This document shows, piece by piece, positions 15,990-36,241 of a DNA stretch of 64,000 bases. The stretch is from IMG/VR virus record IMGVR_UViG_3300005444_000002. One strand, written 5' to 3'. This DNA is from an uncultured virus (IMG/VR IMGVR_UViG_3300005444_000002). Its lineage: Duplodnaviria; Heunggongvirae; Uroviricota; Caudoviricetes. Made by a program: the position numbers and the translations under genes. The notes under the pieces were generated by a model. That model was given only the letters and a program-made list of their open reading frames with translations, was not told the DNA's origin and made no database searches. Position 1 is the first letter of the stretch. Every line of letters starts with the position of its first letter.

Positions 15990-16886
15990 CTAGGCGACCT
16001 CTTCATCCAAGTCCTCCTCTGCATCGATTACCGTGGTATCGGAAGCTACACCTAGCTCCTTCAGGTCGATTTCCTCCATAGAGCCCCAGGTGGGGCCTAC
16101 CTTGATTGCTACCCCTATAGTCAGGTAGGGCCCCAGACCCCACTCCTTAGGGCAGGGGAGGACTTTGATAGGAGTGGTCATCTCGTTATAGAGAGCCCTG
16201 ATGACCCTATCCTTCTCCCCTAGGGGGACCTCACAGAGGATGGAGTCGTGGATGAGGGCTCTGATGGGGGTCCTTCCATGGAAGGTGTCTCCGATGTAGT
16301 TGGCCCCTCCGGGATCCATCAACCTAAGACAGGCTTCTTTGAGGATCCCAGCAGCTGTGCTCTGGGGGTAGAAGGCAACCACCCTGTTAGCATCTCTCCC
16401 GAGAGAAACCTTCCCCCCACTCCACTTCAACACCTCCCAGAACCAATGCTTGTAGTGGAAGGGGTGATCATTCCCTCCTAGGTAACCCTGTCTATGTGCC
16501 CTTTGCCTGAGGTTGTTATGCCAGGATTTCAGCTTGGGGCAGAGCTTATAGTAAAGGGTCTGTAGAGCCGTTGCTGAGGAAATTGTGAAGAGGTGAGGAT
16601 GTAGTTTGGCCATACCATAGGGGGTTTGACCGAAATTCGTTCCGTGCACGGTGCCCTTCCCCTGATGATACTTGACGGGATAGGCTTTCTTGATCTTCTT
16701 GAAGTAATCCCCCAAGACTTCATCCGACCACCCTAGATCGGCTGGCTTGTTTACAAGGTGTGAAGTTAGATAGGCATGAACCCCTAATCTAGCAAGGCGA
16801 ATGTATGTGGGATCCCCACAAAACCATCCTGTAAGGATTGCTTCTATGGCAGAGAAGTCGGCCTCTATGAAAACACACTCACTCAT
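15990..16886 (-). CDS. polA: DNA polymerase family A, C-terminal catalytic part (motifs A, B, C)
   Basis: EADFSAIEA (motif A), KGTVHGTNFG (motif B), PQSTAA, IHDSI (motif C); ATG at 16886 overlaps the upstream TGA. Confidence 0.9.
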   Translation of the reverse strand: MSECVFIEADFSAIEAILTGWFCGDPTYIRLARLGVHAYLTSHLVNKPADLGWSDEVLGDYFKKIKKAYPVKYHQGKGTVHGTNFGQTPYGMAKLHPHLFTISSATALQTLYYKLCPKLKSWHNNLRQRAHRQGYLGGNDHPFHYKHWFWEVLKWSGGKVSLGRDANRVVAFYPQSTAAGILKEACLRLMDPGGANYIGDTFHGRTPIRALIHDSILCEVPLGEKDRVIRALYNEMTTPIKVLPCPKEWGLGPYLTIGVAIKVGPTWGSMEEIDLKELGVASDTTVIDAEEDLDEEVA

Positions 16887-18514
16887 GCGGCTACTATGCA
16901 ATCCTTGAAGCCAGCTGCCAGGGAGTCAGCTCCCTCCCGATCTGCGATGACGTTCTGAAGGTTGGGACCAACACAGCTCAAGCGAAAGGTGGAAGGGGTG
17001 TGGAGGAAGGAGGGATGGACTCTCTTATCAGCCTTAATGAGTCTCTTAGTACCGTCCACATAGGTCCCCTTCACCTTGGTCACTGCTCTGAAATCCAGGA
17101 TGTCTTTATAGAAGGGGTTCTTCTTCGCCAATCCTTCCAGGACCAACTTATTTGTAGAGGGGGCATCAGTCTTGGCCCCCTTCGCCTTCCCCCCCTTATC
17201 CCCCTTCCACTTCATATAGGCCAACAGCTGGGGGTTAGAAGCAGGGTTGAAGGGGGCCTCAACAAACCACCTCTCCTTGAACTCCATTAAGTCGGCAAGT
17301 TGATATTCAACTACCAGCTTCTCTTTCCCCCTCTTATAGGTGACGGAGAAGGGTTTGGTCTTCGCCTTCTTCCACCCCTTCTTGGGATGGAGAGCTAGAG
17401 CATCAGGGGGTACCTGGGAGCAGATCTTGTCCAGGAACTCTCTCTTCTTCCCCTCCAGCTTTACCCCAAACGCATCCAGGAGGGTCTCATCCACAGGTAG
17501 CCCAACCTCCTCTGCTGGGTGGAGGACATAGGTGTCCAGGTCATGGAAGTGGCGGAGGAAGATCTCCCACTGACCTCCCTTCTCAAGATCCCTGGCAATC
17601 CCCCTAGCACACCTGAGGGTCTGAACAGCGTCTATAGCTGCATAGGTCCCTGGGTCACTCCCTGAGAGATGCTTCCAAGGACCGAAGGAACTGAAAAAAG
17701 GAGCGACGAACCCCAACCCTTTTGGCAGATCAGATTGAAGGAGGTGCCAAGCCACCATAAAGTCATAGGGGTTGGCTCCTACAGGACAATCATTTGCCTT
17801 TAGTCTGGGTACATCATATCGGGAATTCCAATAGCAGGTTGTCTGTGCTGCTTTTAGGAGCATCTTAATTAAGGGGATGTATTGTCCAGCCCAGGGGACG
17901 GTTACTCCCTGATCGGGGTTGTAGGAGAAGTTGATTCTGATGATTTCAAAGGAGGGATCCTCCTCTAACTTACCTTCGTCCTTCCCTGCCTTCATCTTCT
18001 GTGGGGTCTCAATATCTACGGCTAACCATGAGGAGGTGCAATGGAGAAATCCCTTCACCCATTCCCTAAACCATTCCGCAGGAGGATCTACTATCAGTTC
18101 TGCAGGTTCCTCCCTCCACCTCCTCTGAAGGACATCCTGAGCAACCTTGAGATCGAATAACAAGGCCCCAGTCATACCGGGTTTGGTTAGGGCATGGTTG
18201 GGGTGGAAGGTGGGGACGATTTTCCCTGAAGGACAACCATGCCAGTTCTCCAGCTTGAAATCCTTCTTAGGGAGTCTAAGGGCATTCCTGACAGCGAGAC
18301 TTCCCATGGCCAACATGACACTGGGTTGGTCCCAAAAGCCATCATCTCCTTCCTGAGCTACGACCATTCTTATGGAATCCCTATCCCACCCCAGGCGGGA
18401 GTAGAGGCGATTTAGTAGGCCTCCAGACCTCCCCTGGAAGGGCCACACCCCTTTATCCATCTCCGCATAGAGGAGGATAGGGGCATTCTCGGGGCCCACG
18501 GGGGGGATCACCAC
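16883..18514 (-). CDS. polA: DNA polymerase family A, N-terminal part (degenerate UDG-like domain, 3'-5' exonuclease, thumb)
   Basis: PF.GRSG.LL and PTFHP (UDG family 4-like); AVDIET, N..YD, YAAIDA (Exo I-III); TFRLS...PNLQNV. Confidence 0.88.
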   Translation of the reverse strand: MVIPPVGPENAPILLYAEMDKGVWPFQGRSGGLLNRLYSRLGWDRDSIRMVVAQEGDDGFWDQPSVMLAMGSLAVRNALRLPKKDFKLENWHGCPSGKIVPTFHPNHALTKPGMTGALLFDLKVAQDVLQRRWREEPAELIVDPPAEWFREWVKGFLHCTSSWLAVDIETPQKMKAGKDEGKLEEDPSFEIIRINFSYNPDQGVTVPWAGQYIPLIKMLLKAAQTTCYWNSRYDVPRLKANDCPVGANPYDFMVAWHLLQSDLPKGLGFVAPFFSSFGPWKHLSGSDPGTYAAIDAVQTLRCARGIARDLEKGGQWEIFLRHFHDLDTYVLHPAEEVGLPVDETLLDAFGVKLEGKKREFLDKICSQVPPDALALHPKKGWKKAKTKPFSVTYKRGKEKLVVEYQLADLMEFKERWFVEAPFNPASNPQLLAYMKWKGDKGGKAKGAKTDAPSTNKLVLEGLAKKNPFYKDILDFRAVTKVKGTYVDGTKRLIKADKRVHPSFLHTPSTFRLSCVGPNLQNVIADREGADSLAAGFKDCIVAA

Positions 18515-28197: not shown

Positions 28198-29412
28198 GGG
28201 CAGTATGGTGGATAGGCAGGATCAGAAGGACTGGATTAGCGATTCCAGGCACTCCATCTTCATCGGGTATGTGTTTGGGGTACTAGTCTCCAGTTGGGAG
28301 GGGAAGGATCCTTACCAGATCAGGATCGTAGGGCCAGCTCCAGGGGGGGATAGGGGGGAGGCGAGGAACTTTGTGGTTATGCACACCACCCTGGGGACCT
28401 ACAGATTGACTATCGATCTGGAGCAGGATAAGTGATCTATCGTAACCATCTCATCTGTGACATCTGCTGGGAGCAGTACCTGGAGGGGATAGACCAGTCC
28501 TATAGGTCGCAGAGGAGAGTCGGAAAGGTCCCTCCCAAGGGGATCTGTTGTAGATGTGGGAGGAGGGTGGAGAAGGGGAGCTATGTTAGGGGGATCTTAG
28601 ACGACTTCCGTTGTTGCGAATGTGCGAAGAGGGAGACGGGATGATGAGATTTGTAATGAACGACCTCCCCCAGCAGATCACTGCCCTTCTGGAGGAGAGC
28701 AAGCTCAATTGCGCCTCTCCAGAGGTTGCCCTTGCTGTGGTCTGGGTGGGGTTGGTGCAGATGAGCAGTGTGGGGTTGCAGGAGGGTCTAGCCCATGACC
28801 TTGTCTGCTCGGTCTGGATGATTCAGGGGATTACTGGGGGGGATCCAGGATGCGTTCCGAACTGACCCCCCAACCTCCCCCTGACCTCTGGTATTGGCTA
28901 GACACCGGTTGGGGCTGTGGGGCGATCCTGGTGAGGAATGGGGTGGTTGTGGATGGGGCTCCGATCTTCATCCGCCTTTGGGGCCAGAGGCTGGAGAAGA
29001 TGAAGAGGCTCTATCAGGTGGCTCTCCTCCAATGACCCCCTGGTGGAATTCTCCCTCCTTCAACCCCATTGAAGACGATTTGGACATCCTCATGGCAGAC
29101 GCTACAGCCCTCCTGGGAGTCCTCACTAGGCTCTGCTCGGCTCTACAGGATGAATTGAATCCTCGCCTACAGTCCACTAGGGTCCAGGTGGCCCTCCTCC
29201 ACGCTCAGTCCCTTTTAGGGGTAATCAACAAGAGAGACTTCCCTAAATCTTCCCCAAAGGGGGGACAAAGTGAAGGTGGGTGATTAGCCCACCCTCACTT
29301 GGGCTGAGCTGACTATCTCAAATTGCTCAGATCCCACCTTGCCTTCTTGTCAACTGGTACTGTCTAGCGTATAGCCCAAACCCCCATAGCGCATCTCTAC
29401 GATATGCACTAA

Positions 29413-30630
29413 CTAGTTCGGTAACCCCATGAGGGCCGGGATGTTGGGGAAATTAGGCCCCTCACTGTTCCCTGTTTTCTTCCCATTTAGCAACGCTTTC
29501 GGACGGGTCCGCTGAGAGTGGGTGTTTGTGGCACCGGGGGCTTCAGCTGGGAGCCACCCACCATAGGTTTCTGTTGTCATGGCCAGGGTGGCGTGACCCA
29601 GTTGCTGCTGGACCCACTTGGGAGGCGTCCCCCGAGCAATGTGCTGAGAGCCGAAGGAGTGTCGCAGGCTGTGGAGGTTGAAGTGGTCAGGGAGGCCTGC
29701 CTTCTTCAGGAGCCAATGCAACTTGAAGAGGAGGTGCTTTCGCACTTGCTCCTCATCCGCCTCCTCCATGGTGGAGGGAAGCTCAGGGAAGAAGAACCAA
29801 GCGTTGGGGGAGAGGTCAGAGGATCTCTCTCGATAACCCTCCAAGGCCTCCCAAAGAAGAGGGGAGACTTCTACTTTCCGGGTAGAGCTGGCAGTCTTGA
29901 GATGCCGGGTCTGCCCCTCATGGTTGTGGATAATCAGATGGCTCTCCGTGACATCCTTTACCTTTAAGTGGAGGAGTTCTCCGATACGGAGGCCAGCCCA
30001 TCCCAGAGTGGCGTAGATGGGGAAGAGGGAGGGGTGATGTTCAAGAGAGGTTTCAAAGAAGAGAGTCATCTGGGGTTCATCCATGGCCTTGACAACCTGG
30101 ATCTCACTCTTTCCTCCCCAAAGAGTTTTTCCCAGTTTGGCAGTGGGGCTCTTGACAATGATCCCTGAATCTACAGCCCAGCCGAAAAAGAGGGAGAGCT
30201 TCTGGACGAGAACCTTCTTGGAGGCCTTGGAAAGGGTATCTCTGGAGTAGAGCAACTCTCGGAGAATTCCTAAGTTGATGTCCACCATCTTCTTCTTTCC
30301 CAGCATCGGGAGAATGTGAAGGCGGATGTTGCTCTCCACGTTCCTGATGGTCCCTGCTGAACGATCAGAGCCTTTGGAGGAGTAGAGCTTCAGGAACGTT
30401 TTGGCATATTCCTCAACAGTGATGAAAGGATCATAGTTGGAGGATTGGGGTCCCTCTCTCTCCATTAGGATGAACTTCGCATCCGCCTGTTGAGCCTCCA
30501 GTTCAGTGGAGTAAATCCTCTTGAACCGAAGGGGTTTGCCTGCCACATCCTTCTTGGTAGGATGAAGACCGTCCAATTGCCAGACAGTCTTCCCTAACCT
30601 CTTGATTTCCGTGATCTTAGCTTTTCTCAT
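29413..30630 (-). CDS. int: Tyrosine integrase
   Basis: GLRIGEL, LKT, HSLRHSFG, LGH, TYG catalytic residues; N-terminal arm/core-binding region. Confidence 0.93.
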   Translation of the reverse strand: MRKAKITEIKRLGKTVWQLDGLHPTKKDVAGKPLRFKRIYSTELEAQQADAKFILMEREGPQSSNYDPFITVEEYAKTFLKLYSSKGSDRSAGTIRNVESNIRLHILPMLGKKKMVDINLGILRELLYSRDTLSKASKKVLVQKLSLFFGWAVDSGIIVKSPTAKLGKTLWGGKSEIQVVKAMDEPQMTLFFETSLEHHPSLFPIYATLGWAGLRIGELLHLKVKDVTESHLIIHNHEGQTRHLKTASSTRKVEVSPLLWEALEGYRERSSDLSPNAWFFFPELPSTMEEADEEQVRKHLLFKLHWLLKKAGLPDHFNLHSLRHSFGSQHIARGTPPKWVQQQLGHATLAMTTETYGGWLPAEAPGATNTHSQRTRPKALLNGKKTGNSEGPNFPNIPALMGLPN

Positions 30631-30704
30631 TCAACCTCCTCCACTCACCTTACCTAATAGCGAGGGGAAGAGTCCAGAGAAATCGAATGGAAGGGAAAGA
30701 TACC

Positions 30705-31067
30705 CTAGGTCTGCTTCCTACCGCTCTGCCGCAGGGCCATCTTCGGGAAGGCCTTCATCAATTCTAGGGAGGTTAGTTGGAACCTAACCATCATTTCAGC
30801 ATGTAGGGAATGGCTTAGATGGACACCCTCATTAATGATTCTGGTCAGATAACTGGCGGTGATGTTGAACTCCTTCGCTAACTGACGAATGGAATACTCG
30901 CCTACCCCCACCCTTACCTTTTTGTATTGGTCATGTGCTCGGAAGATGGTTGGAGTAAGGGAGGCCTTCCCATATGACTGAAGGAGACGATTGATGGAGT
31001 CTATGTTTCCCTGAAGGGAAAGGCAATCCATCTCCATCTCATACTGTATCTGGCGAAGATGACCCAA
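30705..31067 (-). CDS. XRE-like HTH regulator upstream of integrase (repressor candidate)
   Basis: YSIRQLAKEFNITASYLTRIING-type HTH; start uncertain. Confidence 0.55.
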   Translation of the reverse strand: MGHLRQIQYEMEMDCLSLQGNIDSINRLLQSYGKASLTPTIFRAHDQYKKVRVGVGEYSIRQLAKEFNITASYLTRIINEGVHLSHSLHAEMMVRFQLTSLELMKAFPKMALRQSGRKQT

Positions 31068-31142
31068 AGAGGACTCTATCAGGGCCTTCTCTTCTTCTAA
31101 CCTTTGGATGAAATCTGGAGAGGGTGGTGCAGGAAAGGTAAA

Positions 31143-31166
31143 TGGGGGGACATCTCTGTCCCCCCA
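31143..31166 (-). terminator. Terminator-like hairpin closing the protease cassette
   Basis: Minus UGGGGGGACA-GAGA-UGUCCCCCCA followed by a short U tract. Confidence 0.55.
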
Positions 31167-31186
31167 ACCCTCGAACCGTCAATAAT

Positions 31187-32551
31187 TCAGGGCTCAAAGC
31201 ATTTATGTGCTGCTTCGCCCCCACAACCTATACGTCTCTCGCAGACCCCACAACACTCTTCCTGACAAGACTTGAAACTGGGGTAGCATACTTCGTTATG
31301 CGCTCCATCGCAGGAGGGGTTTCCATTTCCCCCACCAGACCCACCACAATCGATGATGGGTTCTCCGGCCTCATTGTATCCAGGGAGGCAGGACTTCCCA
31401 CAGGTACCGCAAAGGTGAGTCCCCCCACATCCATCCGGGACCCAACTACATCCCTCACCTGTGGAATAACCACAGGAGGTTTGGGCAATGCATCCCCCTG
31501 GGTCTGGTACAGGGCCAGGGTTTGTCCCGGGGCAAGACCAACAAGACATCCCCACATCGGCTATGGTCGTATGGGCACAGCTCTGAGCACAGGCATTACA
31601 TACTCCCTCATCCGAGTGGAGACCTATCTGCTCACAGGTTGGGGCTTGGAATGTAGGAGGGTTGAATATGTCCTGGCAGGCATAGTCCCCTGGGAGACCT
31701 TCGGAGTTGGGGATGAGTCGCCAGTCCCCACACACAGGACCATTGATGGTGACCTGGGATCTTGTCCCGGAACAGGAGAAGCGTACATAGGGCCCTCCCC
31801 CTCCCCCCTCACAGAGCATGAATGGGGTGCAGAATTCTGGCCCTAAGAAGACCGATGTACAGGCGTTGAACTCCCGGCAGACCAGGGGCCCTCCCCCTCC
31901 TGGGGCACAGCTTGGGTCTGGGTTGCGGATAAGGGGAGGTTTGGGAGCGATTGGGGGTTGTTGTCGTGGGTCATTCTTAATGGTGTTGTTGTCACAAGGG
32001 GTTGGCTGCATCGGGAGCATTCCATCACTGTCATTGTTGCTGATCTGACAGAGTTGATTCATAATGCTCCCCCCAGCACTATCCCCACAAAAGGCGGTGG
32101 GAACATCACCTAACCCCATGGTGTGTCCTACTTCGTGCATGACGATCTTTTGAAAGAACTGTTCCCGGTTGAATTGCCCAAACTTATCCACATCCACAGT
32201 AATGGTGGCGAAGATGATTCGCCTCCCAGGGATCCCTGTGGCTACAGTGATCCCAGCTGCTCTCCCCCTTGCGGTATCTGGGATCCTCCCCATTACTATC
32301 ACCAGATCTGTTAGGCCTGGACCGATGTCAGTGTCAAAGACAATGTTTGAACCATTGTCGAAAGTGTTGGCAGCGTTCCATTCGTTCAGGGCCTTCATAG
32401 CGGCAGTTTTGTAAATGCCTAACCCAGTGAGATCTACATGGACATCTTTCTCCCTATCCCATCCTGCGAAGACCCAATAGGGAGGGCATTTGGTTGCTGG
32501 TGGAGTGGGTCCTGGGACGAAGAGGAGAAGGGAGAGGAGGAGAGCATTCAC
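31187..32551 (-). CDS. Secreted metzincin (matrixin-like) metalloprotease with Cys-rich C-terminal repeats
   Basis: Hydrophobic N-terminus; A..EWN; HEVGHTMGLGD; SIM Met-turn; many Cys in the tail. Confidence 0.8.
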   Translation of the reverse strand: MNALLLSLLLFVPGPTPPATKCPPYWVFAGWDREKDVHVDLTGLGIYKTAAMKALNEWNAANTFDNGSNIVFDTDIGPGLTDLVIVMGRIPDTARGRAAGITVATGIPGRRIIFATITVDVDKFGQFNREQFFQKIVMHEVGHTMGLGDVPTAFCGDSAGGSIMNQLCQISNNDSDGMLPMQPTPCDNNTIKNDPRQQPPIAPKPPLIRNPDPSCAPGGGGPLVCREFNACTSVFLGPEFCTPFMLCEGGGGGPYVRFSCSGTRSQVTINGPVCGDWRLIPNSEGLPGDYACQDIFNPPTFQAPTCEQIGLHSDEGVCNACAQSCAHTTIADVGMSCWSCPGTNPGPVPDPGGCIAQTSCGYSTGEGCSWVPDGCGGTHLCGTCGKSCLPGYNEAGEPIIDCGGSGGGNGNPSCDGAHNEVCYPSFKSCQEECCGVCERRIGCGGEAAHKCFEP

Positions 32552-33249
32552 CGCAGACCTCCAGTTGCACAGGAACTAGCCCTCAATACCGAGGTGATGT
32601 TGTCTGGTTGGGGTTTGTGCCCGTGGATCAACTGGAGAATAGTCCTCCCCCCTGGTTGAATCTCGTAGGTCTCCCCGAGGTTGTAGGAGGTGTAGTCATT
32701 GGTGGGGGAGAGGTAGGTGAGGAAGACAATATATTTGTGTCCAATCACCAGGGGCCATTCCTGGGGGACTAGGAATTGGATGTGGTCATTGGGGATGTTG
32801 TCGATCACCCCTCCAATACGTGCAATGGTGATTCTATCCCCAACCCTCAAGTTACCCTTCAATATCTCATTCGCCTCAACCTTGTACTCCGTGAAGATGA
32901 AGCTCTCATCTTTTGAGAGTACAGGTCTGGCGTTGTAAGGGGTAACGATAGCTACAGTGTCGGCTGTGCAGAAGGTGGATTGGATTCTAACCTCCTCACC
33001 CTCTTTGGGGATTTCAAGGTTGAAGGAGTAGGCTGTGGAAAGGTTAGGTAAGAGCTTCCTCCCGGTTGCGTAGGAGGAGAAGAGATGTTCGTGGTAGCGG
33101 TGTCTCTCGTTCCTGGCTTTGTATCCCTCCCTGGTGGTGGCCAGGGGCTCCACGTCTGGGGGGGCTGCAAGGGAAGGGCATTGGAGGAGCAGAAGGGTGA
33201 TGGGGAGTGCGACTATGCACGCGACAAGCAGCTGCCTCAAGACTCTCAA
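32548..33249 (-). CDS. Secreted protein with TIMP/NTR-like OB-fold signature
   Basis: Signal peptide; CTAD.V...EYKV...EILKG...I...PL..G.KY.VFL. Confidence 0.55.
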   Translation of the reverse strand: MRVLRQLLVACIVALPITLLLLQCPSLAAPPDVEPLATTREGYKARNERHRYHEHLFSSYATGRKLLPNLSTAYSFNLEIPKEGEEVRIQSTFCTADTVAIVTPYNARPVLSKDESFIFTEYKVEANEILKGNLRVGDRITIARIGGVIDNIPNDHIQFLVPQEWPLVIGHKYIVFLTYLSPTNDYTSYNLGETYEIQPGGRTILQLIHGHKPQPDNITSVLRASSCATGGLR

Positions 33250-33279
33250 GTGTGGCCTCCTTTTGAAGTGTGTAAAAGG

Positions 33280-33308
33280 ACTCTACACTCTTCGGCTAGA
33301 GGGGTCAA
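33280..33308 (-). promoter_or_regulatory. Sigma70-like promoter of the protease cassette
   Basis: Minus TTGACC-17nt-TAGAGT, followed by AAGGAGG RBS. Confidence 0.6.
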
Positions 33309-33341
33309 GGGGGGTGATTACCTGAGGAGACCTCCTAGAGA

Positions 33342-33620
33342 GGGAGTGGGGACCGGACTCAACACCGGTTGTTCCTTTCGCTGGCTTGGCTCACGGTTGG
33401 CTGTGCTCAGCGAGGAAAGGAGAAGCAGTGAGGAGAGGCTTGCAATCCTCCAACCCCACGCAAGCTACCGAAGTAGCCATGCTGTCCCGTGCATTCATGC
33501 TTACCCTACGTCCTTCCGTAGTGCCCCACCTTTGAGTACAGGAGAGGGGACTCGATGGAGCCAAGGAGGGCAGAATGTTAGTGCATTCCTCCCAGGCCGG
33601 ATTACTCCAGGCCCACTCCC
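33342..33620 (-). ncRNA. Candidate ~280-nt structured non-coding RNA with tRNA-like ends
   Basis: Terminal 9-bp helix GGGAGUGGG/CCCACUCCC; GUAA and C(UUCG)G tetraloop hairpins on the minus strand; T-arm-like ACCGG-UGUUGAGU-CCGGU; several further stems. Confidence 0.7.
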
Positions 33621-33987
33621 ACGAATCCCCACTTCTATGCTCACTCAAGACCAAGCACTGGTGTGCCGTTGTAGTAATCAATATTGTCAATGCCCTTAAC
33701 CCGGGCATCTGGATACTTCGCAGCGAATAACACCAAGGCTGCTTCAAATGACTCCGCTGCAGCGTAAATATGACCAACCGTTAGCTCACCGTATGCTCCT
33801 TGGATTTTAATCTGCTGAGTCAATCTGATAGTGAACAGTTTAATCATTCCCTAATCTCCACATAACTAGCCACAATCCATCCCCCTGCCAACACCCCAGC
33901 CCACCCCGAGGATTGCCCCTTCCCACCTGGGCAGCCCCTGCACCGAGGAAGAAGAGGCCCAAGAAGACAAACAATATGCGCCGGGAT

Positions 33988-34326
33988 TTACTCATCGATG
34001 AAGTACCTCTCTTTAGGAAGATGTTCCCCACAAACCCACCTCACATTCGCTTCTTCTAACCAGGACCATACCGTTGCCTTTCCACACTTCCAGCAGAACA
34101 TCGGGGGTAGTAATTGAGGATGAGATTTCGGGCCTCTCTTGGGAGGATGAGATAAGCGTTCCTTTCTCAGATTTTCCACTTCCTGGAAATGAAACCACTG
34201 CTTCCTGTTTCCCTCCTCCTCCACATACATAGGTCGGAGGGTTCCTCTCTTCATCAGGTCTCTTACCATACGCAGGGAGAGACCCAACCTTTGGGCGGTT
34301 TGCTTTAGGGAAAGAGGGGGAGTCAA
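33988..34326 (-). CDS. Excisionase/MerR-like HTH protein with Zn ribbon
   Basis: LSLKQTAQRLGLS...V.DLMKRG.L.P...F...V; CWKC. Confidence 0.65.
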   Translation of the reverse strand: MTPPLSLKQTAQRLGLSLRMVRDLMKRGTLRPMYVEEEGNRKQWFHFQEVENLRKERLSHPPKRGPKSHPQLLPPMFCWKCGKATVWSWLEEANVRWVCGEHLPKERYFIDE

Positions 34327-34334
34327 GGGATATT

Positions 34335-35255
34335 CCGGGACGGAACAGCGCCGCCACGTCGAGCGGCCTCAGCAGATCCAGGCCGCGCGCCACCAGCAGG
34401 GTCGCCTCGGCCTCCGTCATGTTGTCCGGGAAGCTCACCAGCGTCTCTCCGTCCTTCGTCCAGACGTGGACGCGCCGCGGGATCCCGTTGGTCATCACTT
34501 CGACCATCACGCGCTGATCGTACGGCGCTCCGTTGCTCGGTGTGCTCACTTACCGCCCACGAATTTCATGATCGTCTCGATCGCCTCGGCCACACCCTCG
34601 ACCGGCACATCCCACACGCGCACACCGTCCTGACCGTTGATCTCGCGATCGTCGGTGGACGCCACGCACTCGCCGTCTTCCCAGTGCAGGCAACCAAAGC
34701 GCACACTTGACCCACCTGGCAACTTAGCCTCGCTGAAGAAATACAGGAATCGATCGCCAGCGCCTTCCGCGCCGATCACCCATCGCGCCTGCGCCTCGAT
34801 CACGCCGTCGCCTTCTCCACCGCGGCGTGGGCCGTCGCGTTAATGCGGTCGAAATGCCGCTCCGTCTCGGCCACGAAAGACTCGTCGCGTATCTGCACGA
34901 GCGCGGCAAGTAACTCCGCCTTCTCCTTGCGCAGCCGGCACACTTCCGCGACAAGCGGCGGAAGCCACTGGCTAGGGCGCGTGCCGCCCGGCCCGACTCT
35001 CCTGGCCAGCAGCGCCAGTTCGGTGTCTGTCAGCGGCGTGCTCAAGGGATCCGTGCCACGAAGCCGCCGTCGCCCAGCTCGGCCCCGTCGACCGCTCTGA
35101 CGTTGAGGCTCGCGCACCGGCCGCAGATCCACCTCACGCTGTTGCCCCGTGCCCTTCCGGCGTCGCCGCCTTCGTCGCCCTCGACCTCGATGCTGGACAG
35201 CTGTTCCGCGATCCCGTCGAAGCTCCGCGCCAGCGACTCGGATTCACGCCAGCCA
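34335..35255 (-). other. GC- and CpG-rich foreign block with 3-4 small ORFs (34800-35045, 34546-34803, and disrupted genes at both edges)
   Basis: Abrupt compositional shift; reading frames broken at both junctions; boundaries approximate. Confidence 0.7.
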
Positions 35256-35334
35256 GGAGAGTATTCCGATTAATCATTACCTACCACCTTTACCCTGGGG
35301 AGCCATCTCCCTCCCCAGGGGACTAGCCGACCTC

Positions 35335-35931
35335 TTAGGCCGTGACTGCCTTCGCACCCTTCTTCCCCTTCGGCTGGGGGTGAGGGGCCACCTTGGGGCT
35401 CTCCACCCTGATCCCCAGGATGTCGTGGGTACATTCGGGACAAGTTATGCTCCTCCCAGCGGGTAAAGTCAAGAGCTTTTCCTGGATCTGGGAGTGGGTG
35501 CAAGGGGCCTCCACTTGGGGGACCTCCTCCGGGGGAGGATGACGGATCTGACTCGCCTCCGGATCCGCCAACTGACGTTCGGGTTGGGTCTTGTAGGGAG
35601 GTCTTCCCAGAGGCTTCCCGTTCTTGCTCAACTTCTCCCCGTACTTCGCTTGAGGGGACTTCTCCACCGTCTCTCCACCGTTCTTCTTCCTGTTCCACCA
35701 AGCCAGCTGTGCGGCGGAAGGTGCCTTCCCCCCATTCACCACAGGAACCCCTGCGGAGACCATGGGAGGGGTTCCCCCACCCCTGGTGAACCTCTGGGCC
35801 AAGAGAATCGCCAGAGCCCTGTCCTGGGGGGAGAGCTGGGTCAGACCCCATGCCACATCCGCCACCACTGCCCCTGTCATCACCGCTGGATTTGTCTGAG
35901 CCTTCCTCGGCATTATCCACCTACCTTCCAA
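35335..35931 (-). CDS. Hypothetical basic protein with Zn ribbon
   Basis: K/P-rich; CTH...CPEC. Confidence 0.55.
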   Translation of the reverse strand: MEGRWIMPRKAQTNPAVMTGAVVADVAWGLTQLSPQDRALAILLAQRFTRGGGTPPMVSAGVPVVNGGKAPSAAQLAWWNRKKNGGETVEKSPQAKYGEKLSKNGKPLGRPPYKTQPERQLADPEASQIRHPPPEEVPQVEAPCTHSQIQEKLLTLPAGRSITCPECTHDILGIRVESPKVAPHPQPKGKKGAKAVTA

Positions 35932-36241
35932 AGGGTTTAACGTTTCAATCTCAACTGCCTTACCCCATCCAAGATGCCCCTACTGATCAACATCCCCTCA
36001 CAGAGGTCACAATCGATGCTGTACTGTAAGAACCCTTGCACCACCTGCTCAACCTCGTAGAGCAAGAACTCCATATGAGCTTCGATAACCAGTCTACTCT
36101 CAACTATCCCTAACGTCAACTCCTTTTCAAGTATCTCTGCAAGTATCATCACCCGTGAGGGTTCCATGATATTTCCTTCACATCCGTATGACTTGTCCTT
36201 TCCAAACCCCTGGAGAGAGGAGGAGGGATTGCTTTCTTTTC

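Follow-up and report, generated by a model that had tools for sequence, protein, structure and literature searches.

An uncatalogued structured RNA of a temperate soil phage and its possible descent from a group I intron

At the end of the leftward early operon of an uncultured Caudoviricetes virus lies an intergenic stretch that raises the question of whether it encodes a stand-alone RNA and, if so, of which kind. A preliminary description, made from the letters of the DNA, had placed here a multi-stem RNA with a tRNA-like closing domain and had offered a tRNA mimic or decoy, a ribozyme or a protein scaffold as its role. We analysed the locus within the window, that is, the whole stretch of 64,000 nt, which represents most of a temperate phage genome with a terminase, a major head protein, a PolA-type polymerase, an integrase (29413–30630) and an excisionase-like gene (33988–34326). 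The RNA is uncatalogued, ~280 nt long and carried by a temperate soil phage.

Genomic setting of the element

The structured RNA gene is assigned to 33342–33620 on the minus strand, with ends inferred from its closing stem. The stop codon of a 68-aa orphan ORF (33641–33847, minus strand) lies 20 nt before it, and downstream, in the same orientation, follow a cargo pair encoding secreted-looking proteins of 233 and 454 aa (31187–33249), an HTH gene and the integrase. Another virus record (G001) contains the RNA region in identical form, and the DNA runs in which the region occurs are rhizosphere metagenomes, from which it may come. The host, guessed only from the family of the 233-aa cargo protein, which is acidobacterial, would belong to the Acidobacteriota.

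One explanation of this arrangement is that the element acts in cis, as a leader, attenuator or riboswitch that would use alternative pairings to govern read-through of early-operon transcription into the cargo genes and the integrase. Its position upstream of the co-oriented cargo pair, HTH gene and integrase agrees with such a role, as do its many mutually exclusive helices. However, a sigma-70-like promoter is predicted between the RNA and the cargo pair (33308–33280, minus strand), although this site is weak, with a 9/12 match and 0.8 sites expected by chance, and promoter and terminator prediction found neither a minus-strand terminator nor a promoter upstream of the RNA. Furthermore, the same cargo pair occurs in another, high-GC phage (L207:6001–7943) with no such RNA nearby or elsewhere in the record. 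The cargo pair is not tied to the RNA, and an obligate leader of the cargo genes was rejected. The 5′ and 3′ ends pair with each other, as in stand-alone RNAs, and no riboswitch family matches. We regard a cis-acting regulator as distinctly improbable.

In both phages, the cassette (31187–33249 on the minus strand of the window; L207:6001–7943) consists of the 233-aa secreted-looking protein followed by the 454-aa protein, which is Cys-rich and zincin-like. Weak Atlas leads connect the 233-aa protein with TIMP/NTR-like domains (score 0.87 or less); the mobile cassette possibly encodes a protease plus an inhibitor or adaptor. The region 30630–33988 (minus strand), which holds the RNA, the cargo pair, two small ORFs and the HTH gene between the excisionase-like gene and the integrase, occupies a moron-like place, and the surroundings of the integrase showed no attP derived from a tRNA. 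Elsewhere in the window, the PolA-type polymerase (15990–18514, minus strand) is encoded by two ORFs in different frames with a stop/start overlap near 16883. In a related phage (G004, 55% capsid identity), both polymerase parts are in one frame and the second part carries an insertion of ~790 nt, perhaps an intein or an intron; the two-ORF polymerase of the window is either a split gene or an assembly frameshift. The related phage also has 32 tRNA genes between polymerase and phosphoesterase (L135:4914–15030), where the window phage has none, and it contains no match to the window phage’s integrase or RNA.

Fold and closing domain of the element

The helices proposed in the preliminary description exist at their minus-strand positions, and all pairs are canonical in those checked. 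Canonical throughout are the 9-bp closing stem (33620–33612/33350–33342), the helices at 33610/33597, 33593/33564, 33587/33574, 33521/33506, 33478/33463, 33459/33428, 33451/33434, 33420/33374 and 33413/33378, and the last hairpin (33369/33352). Two details needed correction. The GGGAGG and GAAUG strands are both present, but share G33588, so one of them is one base shorter than written. Direct reading also located the GAGU/ACUC stem (33553–33550/33537–33534), but the proposed pseudoknot between it and a CCCC/GGGG pairing was not confirmed, and the G run has better partners. The minimum free energy (MFE) is −116 kcal/mol with a z-score of −2.11, a stability equalled by 6 of 200 shuffles, and the window holds 121 perfect 9-bp stems spanning 200–400 nt. 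By itself, the folding evidence is weak and does not go beyond chance. Separately, the 5′ half of the locus folds more strongly on the plus strand (33500–33649; z −5.5, vs −3.4 for the minus strand, 30 shuffles).

From the 5′ side, the first strand of the closing stem (33612–33620, minus strand as are all that follow) pairs with 33342–33350 with a probability of 0.91. It is followed by two hairpins (33564–33610), one a GNRA-capped stem and the other a stem with an internal loop, both peripheral in the two threadings of the core discussed below. The strand 33547–33565 may change partners: it could form 8 bp with 33385–33392, 8 bp with 33523–33530, or 5 bp with 33484–33488, the last option adjoining a bulged A33552. 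A variable insertion (33532–33546) separates it from a 57-nt core (core A, 33475–33531) made up of a G-rich strand, the hairpin 33521–33506 and a segment resembling the P element of group I introns (33497–33482). Then come a short stem and a hairpin with a variable loop (33460–33482), a covarying hairpin (33428–33459) and a pyrimidine strand (33416–33427) that could form five Watson–Crick pairs with 33498–33502 or six of seven pairs with 33524–33530. A second core (core B, 33383–33415) is followed by the last hairpin (33352–33369), which overlaps a segment resembling the group I R element (7 of 10 conserved letters) and has a pair probability of 0.59, against 0.31 for a competing extension of the closing rod. 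Last comes the other half of the closing stem (33342–33350), its 3′ strand, with no CCA after it. Repeated words were also observed: one hexamer occurs at 33278–33293, 33548–33553, 33355–33360 and 31071–31076 (minus strand), four copies in 2.5 kb of the 19 on the whole strand, its copy at 33289 being the best-scoring R-like site and overlapping the −10 box of the predicted promoter, and an 8-mer from core A recurs at 33588–33581.

The marks of a tRNA include a T-loop consensus, the GG of the D-loop and a 3′ CCA. A tRNA-like closing domain, perhaps a mimic or decoy acting against anticodon nucleases, had been suggested by the hairpin that immediately precedes the 3′ strand of this stem, likened to a T-arm. 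Such a decoy might also act against sensors of uncharged tRNA, and the hairpin that follows the 5′ strand is in keeping with the idea. This proposal did not survive inspection. ARAGORN found no gene in the element. The 8-nt loop of the last hairpin does not follow the T-loop consensus, the first hairpin ends in a GNRA tetraloop where a D-loop would be expected, and there is neither an anticodon-like arm nor a CCA. The closing branch comprises 9+5 bp plus an unpaired base, whereas in the available text of PMC5389517 the branch is given as 12 bp for tRNAs, including the 8/4 and 9/3 allo-tRNAs, and as 13 bp for tRNA-Sec. Moreover, the measured conservation lies in the middle of the element and not in the closing domain, and we consider a tRNA mimic very improbable. 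The allo-tRNAs of Acidobacteria, as described in that part of PMC5389517, share with the element a long closing stem, a probable acidobacterial host and an origin in soil, but differ in branch length, loops and size and in possessing an anticodon arm and CCA. A tmRNA was likewise rejected, since the tRNA-like domain, tag frame and CCA expected of one were lacking by Rfam and ARAGORN. The RNase P RNA model (RF00010), which matches 11 of 14 controls, had no match at E values up to 10 in G001.

A relative in soil RNA libraries

Rfam 15 gave no match at or above gathering in the 64-kb window, and searches at E values up to 10 on 1201, 296 or 106 bases returned nothing credible, the best hit (E 0.46) being on the other strand; this is in line with the undescribed RNA that had been anticipated. 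Resemblances to SRP, T-box, cobalamin T-loop, group II domain 5, hammerhead and Y RNAs were dropped on the Rfam results. Among the matches listed by viral pattern scans (at least 118 stretches in one scan), there was nothing beyond copies of the window phage. A metagenome pattern scan gave eight matches, one an identical copy and seven due to chance; a genome-wide pattern gave none, and blastn against phages and plasmids found no homologue of the RNA beyond copies of the window phage. Three capsid-related records yielded a single 19-nt chance match, and 50 records chosen from 80 (49 terminase-related, one cargo-related) a single 22-nt chance match. DNA searches of Acidobacteriota genome samples found the RNA in none of 401, 401, 10, 181, 119 and 181 genomes (samples partly overlapping, genomes incomplete), and a single-sequence covariance model in none of 151 Acidobacteriota genomes and none of four run beside the positive control G001; with the phylum inferred from a cargo gene, these results mean "not found" rather than absent. 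The RNA family is rare and probably travels on mobile DNA. In the literature available to us, from which most subscription papers fell outside, we found neither this RNA described nor, in bacteria, any natural permuted group I RNA that stands alone. A survey of structured RNAs from phages (PMC10690425) contains no occurrence in six supplementary files, while three others may hold candidate sequences, and the accessible part of 10.64898/2026.09.15.751765 has nothing relevant to the element.

Four sequencing runs were compared with 31000–36000 at 80% likeness. In X9 and X10, soil RNA-seq runs of one study, the only substantial matches over these 5 kb fall within the element; the other match, 34 nt at 35158–35191 in both, is chance-sized and was ignored. 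X9 matches 33386–33531 with 15 differing letters and 5 gaps at a depth of 3.1, and X10 matches 33471–33531 with one differing letter at a depth of 11.9. The 30-nt loose end of the X10 contig is identical to the X9 variants over 33470–33443. We count the two as one relative, probably from one organism, and as contigs they do not prove transcription, strand, ends or level.

Thirteen of the 15 differing letters of X9 are listed, the other two being near the contig ends. All 13 lie within 33416–33474, with zero in 33475–33531 (core A, where X10 also has no listed difference) and in 33386–33415 (30 nt of core B), although the way in which the runs were found would by itself produce one invariant run of at least 31 nt. 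Hence 87 nt are invariant while the remainder differs by about a fifth, with compensatory changes, a combination that implies selection. Seven of the 27 model pairs that X9 covers on both sides are touched by changes: three are changed on both sides, three on one side with pairing retained, and one is broken. The two-sided compensatory changes (33458:33429, 33455:33432 and 33449:33436) are all in one helix, that of the covarying hairpin, whose 8-nt loop (33446–33439) contains a 6-nt palindrome and stays unchanged though the stem varies. The probability of three or more two-sided changes is ~1e-4 over the covered span and 1.7e-3 with changes confined to the variable part; the relative leaves the 5′ 90 nt and the 3′ 45 nt without usable covariation. 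In the variable insertion, X10 has an unrelated GNRA hairpin, and in the pyrimidine strand, X9 has one deletion and one change from G-U to G-C.

The constraint on the element is not coding: in each of the overlapping ORFs, 7 of the 13 listed changes hit codon position 2, and the frame is broken by two single-base deletions, so that the changes follow the codons of neither ORF. The assignment to the minus strand is supported by the three one-sided changes, which keep pairing there only, via G-U, but the UUCG loop invoked as proof of the strand is replaced in X9 and X10. It is these comparisons, rather than the folding, that are decisive and lift the helices above chance, and we conclude that the element is a genuine minus-strand gene for a structured RNA. 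Covariation thus bears out the structured ~280-nt RNA that had been proposed, its exact ends excepted.

A group I-like core and its relation to known systems

The statement that the element lacks group I signatures was partly wrong. A canonical P7 is indeed absent, but core B contains a near-perfect IC3-type Q element (33401–33383; J5/4, P4 3′, P6 5′ and J6/6a). Test introns were taken from acidobacterial genomes, leaving out loci from genomes flagged as unpublished, and the first matrices were built from 25 of them, chosen by a pattern requiring canonical R and S cores. The Q element at 33401 scored 20.2 bits, a value reached in 0 of 3000 shuffles, and neither strand of the 64 kb has another such site; the scores of real introns begin at 20.8, with a median of 31.5. 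With a matrix from a 27-row alignment, it scored 20.4 bits and kept 12 of 13 conserved letters, a level found at three sites in 20 Mb of Markov background and at none of 1.16 million positions of real background. Seven of ten sub-windows of the Q block gave it rank 1 out of 128,000 sites, and 12 sub-windows outside the block gave ranks of 26 to 2193. The resemblance to tRNA introns was noticed after many families had been considered, which calls for a look-elsewhere penalty of perhaps 30–50 fold.

The other elements gave lower scores. The P element at 33497 reached 4.0 bits (P 0.09) with the 25-intron matrix and fell to −1.2 bits with the 27-row alignment, for which the best R-like site lies at 33289, outside the element; R and S had no ungapped match with the 25-intron matrices (P 0.85 and 0.68). 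A profile HMM gave an E value of 0.92 for the first intron half, whereas its second half did not match the candidate. A covariance model of the intron P4–P6–R region aligned full length to 33354–33497, exactly the expected span, though weakly (6.9 bits, E 9.8, rank 7 of 8). As a gauge of the noise of such models, the intron P4–P6 model scored 17.7 bits (E 0.011) antisense in the polymerase gene of G004 (L135:18856–18943, plus strand), probably by chance. The group I and GIR1 models of Rfam did not match the element at E values up to 10, nor did RF00028 find anything in G001. The Q match appears strong even after the look-elsewhere penalty, and the remaining group I evidence in the sequence is only suggestive.

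Group I introns are abundant in the likely host group: in the class of G055 (loci L293–L339), 58 of 151 genomes match RF00028, 36 of them over the cut-off, with many introns in tRNA-Asn and tRNA-Leu genes. Like the IC3-type tRNA introns of Acidobacteriota (RF00028 loci), the element retains the Q letters, can form P4, P5 and P6, and has P-like (7 of 11) and R-like segments in canonical order. Unlike them, it interrupts no tRNA or other gene and its ends are joined by the closing stem; it is intergenic, the adjacent ORFs look whole, ARAGORN reports no tRNA, and no flanking exons were found. A P1 with a U-G splice pair was not found by eye, and the canonical guanosine site of P7 (R, S and J8/7) is missing, with no partner strand nearby.

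The core can be threaded in two ways. Threading A keeps the canonical order: P lies at 33497 and is followed by a 79-nt P5 extension, Q, P6a and the R-like strand at 33366. It pairs 5 of 6 positions in P4 (33492–33487/33396–33391), 2 of 2 in P5, 3 of 3 in P6 and 2 of 2 in P6a. The R-like segment has no partner strand between 33620 and 32700, 29000–34200 contains no canonical S core, and a fold constrained to canonical order costs 7–20 kcal/mol relative to the MFE. An intron split around the cargo genes was rejected for lack of an S core downstream, as was a first permuted reading that used the 3′ R-like copy as P7, requiring a bulge and leaving P3 without a partner. The pairs of threading A, and a covariance model that aligns exactly its span, might reflect a decayed ordinary group I intron of canonical order whose P7 3′, P8 and P9 are gone and which no longer serves a function, or else chance folding of intergenic DNA, for which the weak folding z-score and a covariation drawn from one contig of depth 3.1 also speak. 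Against decay or chance stand the 87 nt kept invariant amid divergence of about one-fifth with compensatory changes, the independent match of X10 (depth 11.9) to X9 over 30 nt of the variable part, and the failure to find exons, a 3′ half or the missing R and S partners. We judge this explanation improbable.

Threading B, built after the fact, is permuted and opened in the P6 extension. In it, P7 is 33551–33547/33488–33484 (five Watson–Crick pairs, with bulged A33552), P3 is 33530–33524/33422–33416 (6 of 7 pairs, X9 turning one G-U into G-C), P8 is 33521–33506, and a P15-like helix of five Watson–Crick pairs joins 33502–33498 to 33427–33423. P9.0 and P9 correspond to the stem and hairpin at 33460–33482, followed by G33459 as candidate omega-G and by the covarying hairpin as P10. 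P4 is 33413–33408/33396–33391 (5 of 6), P5 has two pairs, and P6 is 33562–33560/33390–33388 (3 of 3); the multi-partner strand would supply P6 3′, J6/7 and P7 5′, its alternative partner 33385–33392 belonging to the Q element. Both invariant runs coincide with the proposed core, and variation falls in the P9 loop, in the P10-like helix and in the insertion that precedes P3, so that threading B explains where the invariant runs begin and end. The P7 pairs, however, are flipped relative to real introns (canonical P7 5′ strand in 33 of 34, the variant of threading B in 0 of 34), the 262–312 position is a G-A mismatch, and J3/4 is not A-rich. Of 20,000 shuffles, 28 satisfied the descriptor for B and 47 that for A, both written after the fact; these figures overstate the support because the two threadings are mutually exclusive. 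Their P4 registers exclude each other at 5 of 6 pairs each, and there is no covariation to separate them in a core that is invariant in the sole relative.

Followed round the circle, the helices of threading B run P10, P15, P3, P4, P5, P4, P6, the two ends, P6, P7, P3, P8, P15, P7, P9, omega-G, P10, as in the lariat-capping ribozyme GIR1, whose P3–P7 and P3–P15 double pseudoknot could be drawn with all its helices on the circularised order. Further likenesses of threading B to GIR1 are the P15-like helix between P8 and P7, the P10-like helix after omega-G, a minimal P5 and an almost empty J4/5. The available text on GIR1 (RF01807; Beckert et al. 2008, PMC2219692) likewise places P15 between P8 and P7, describes an asymmetric P4/P5 interface, and names bacterial IC3 introns as the closest relatives. 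It defines GIR1 by a G-U pair at the P10/P15 interface and a CAU lariat triplet after omega-G. In the element, that interface has no G-U pair, as U33497 faces C33428, and the letters after G33459 differ from CAU and vary in X9. The element would also be circularly permuted and phage-borne, with no endonuclease mRNA to cap, whereas GIR1 is found in a protist twin intron, and it has a non-canonical P7 and no Rfam match. Because of the flipped P7 and the missing G-U and lariat triplet, the RNA is a member of neither the group I nor the GIR1 family, although it may work like them.

Our best explanation, held tentatively, is that a stand-alone RNA gene has descended from an IC3-type group I intron, has been rewired and is no longer an intron. 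It would account for a Q element of 20.2–20.4 bits inside a 30-nt run invariant in X9, agrees with the abundance of group I introns, IC3-type ones among them, in the likely hosts, and allows all core helices to be fitted by the permuted threading. It has to contend with the negative Rfam, covariance-model and HMM results, with unmatched R and S and a flipped P7, with a threading A that passes its own descriptor about as well, and with core helices that show no covariation. Based on this reading, we propose a plausible mechanism. The RNA would be transcribed at the tail of the leftward early operon, co-transcribed with it, and trimmed to the closing stem. Its most economical fold would be the circular permutation opened in the P6 extension, with helices in lariat-capping order. 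G33459 might then dock in the P7 pocket (G33551–C33484 beside the bulged A33552), and a single self-cut after G33459, by branching or hydrolysis rather than splicing, would yield a nicked, compact, stable RNA held together by pairing. Alternatively, the RNA could be a catalytically dead scaffold that keeps the P4–P6 module. With the Q element in core B, the ribozyme option of the preliminary description becomes the best lead, still unproven; over all readings, we think a group I derivative with retained catalysis unlikely.

The main rival is an unrelated, new ornate RNA of a mobile element that acts in trans and folds much as first drawn. Its invariant cores would bind a host or phage protein, it might dimerise through the palindromic loop, like ROOL, GOLLD and raiA RNAs, and the Q match would be due to convergence or luck. 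The MFE fold needs no intron logic, covariation is confined to one helix of that fold, the palindromic loop is constant while its stem changes, and the P7 of group I type is non-canonical; large phage-associated RNAs that form homo-oligomers are known (PMC12286853, available text). On the other hand, this view leaves unexplained a 20-bit Q match within an invariant core. No partner gene is evident, as the upstream ORF is an orphan and the cargo pair occurs without the RNA, and Rfam shows no match to the ROOL, GOLLD or raiA classes. We hold this rival to be a genuine if doubtful possibility. The large ornate RNAs ROOL, GOLLD, OLE and raiA (PMC12286853, PMC12968392) resemble the element in a closed multi-stem form with invariant cores, carriage by phages, occurrence in RNA libraries and a candidate self-complementary loop; the element differs in lacking an Rfam match and in being very rare (0 copies in the Acidobacteriota samples searched).

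At minimum, the phage carries an uncatalogued RNA family of ~280 nt that comparison supports and that has a relative in RNA libraries. If group I ancestry is true, it would join the lariat-capping ribozyme as a second example of a group I intron that has taken on another identity, and the proposed path by which an intron becomes a new ribozyme could be tested in a small RNA with one predicted cut site. Should a core with flipped P7 pairs work, it would revise what counts as invariant in group I catalysis. The fullest version of this reading, a natural, circularly permuted, group I-derived phage ribozyme opened in the P6 extension, with a P15-type rewired core and a recoded P7 pocket, which cuts itself or branches after G33459, survives as a free-standing RNA and is shared among soil mobile elements, seems to us unlikely. 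A precedent comes from the circularly permuted group II ribozymes (Roth et al. 2021, PMC8637638), which, in the text available, are also stand-alone, domain-rearranged intron derivatives on mobile DNA with internal reactive sites and no known role; the only such group I case mentioned there is a back-splicing precursor in coral mitochondria. They belong to another ribozyme class, whereas the element, at ~280 nt, has no match to group II domain 5 and no acpG-like partner. The lariat-capping ribozyme, according to the accessible text of PMC2219692, is known only from protists, with its closest relatives among bacterial IC3 introns. If the permuted-ribozyme reading is true, the phage RNA would be a bacterial counterpart of the lariat-capping ribozyme and a group I counterpart of the circularly permuted group II RNAs.
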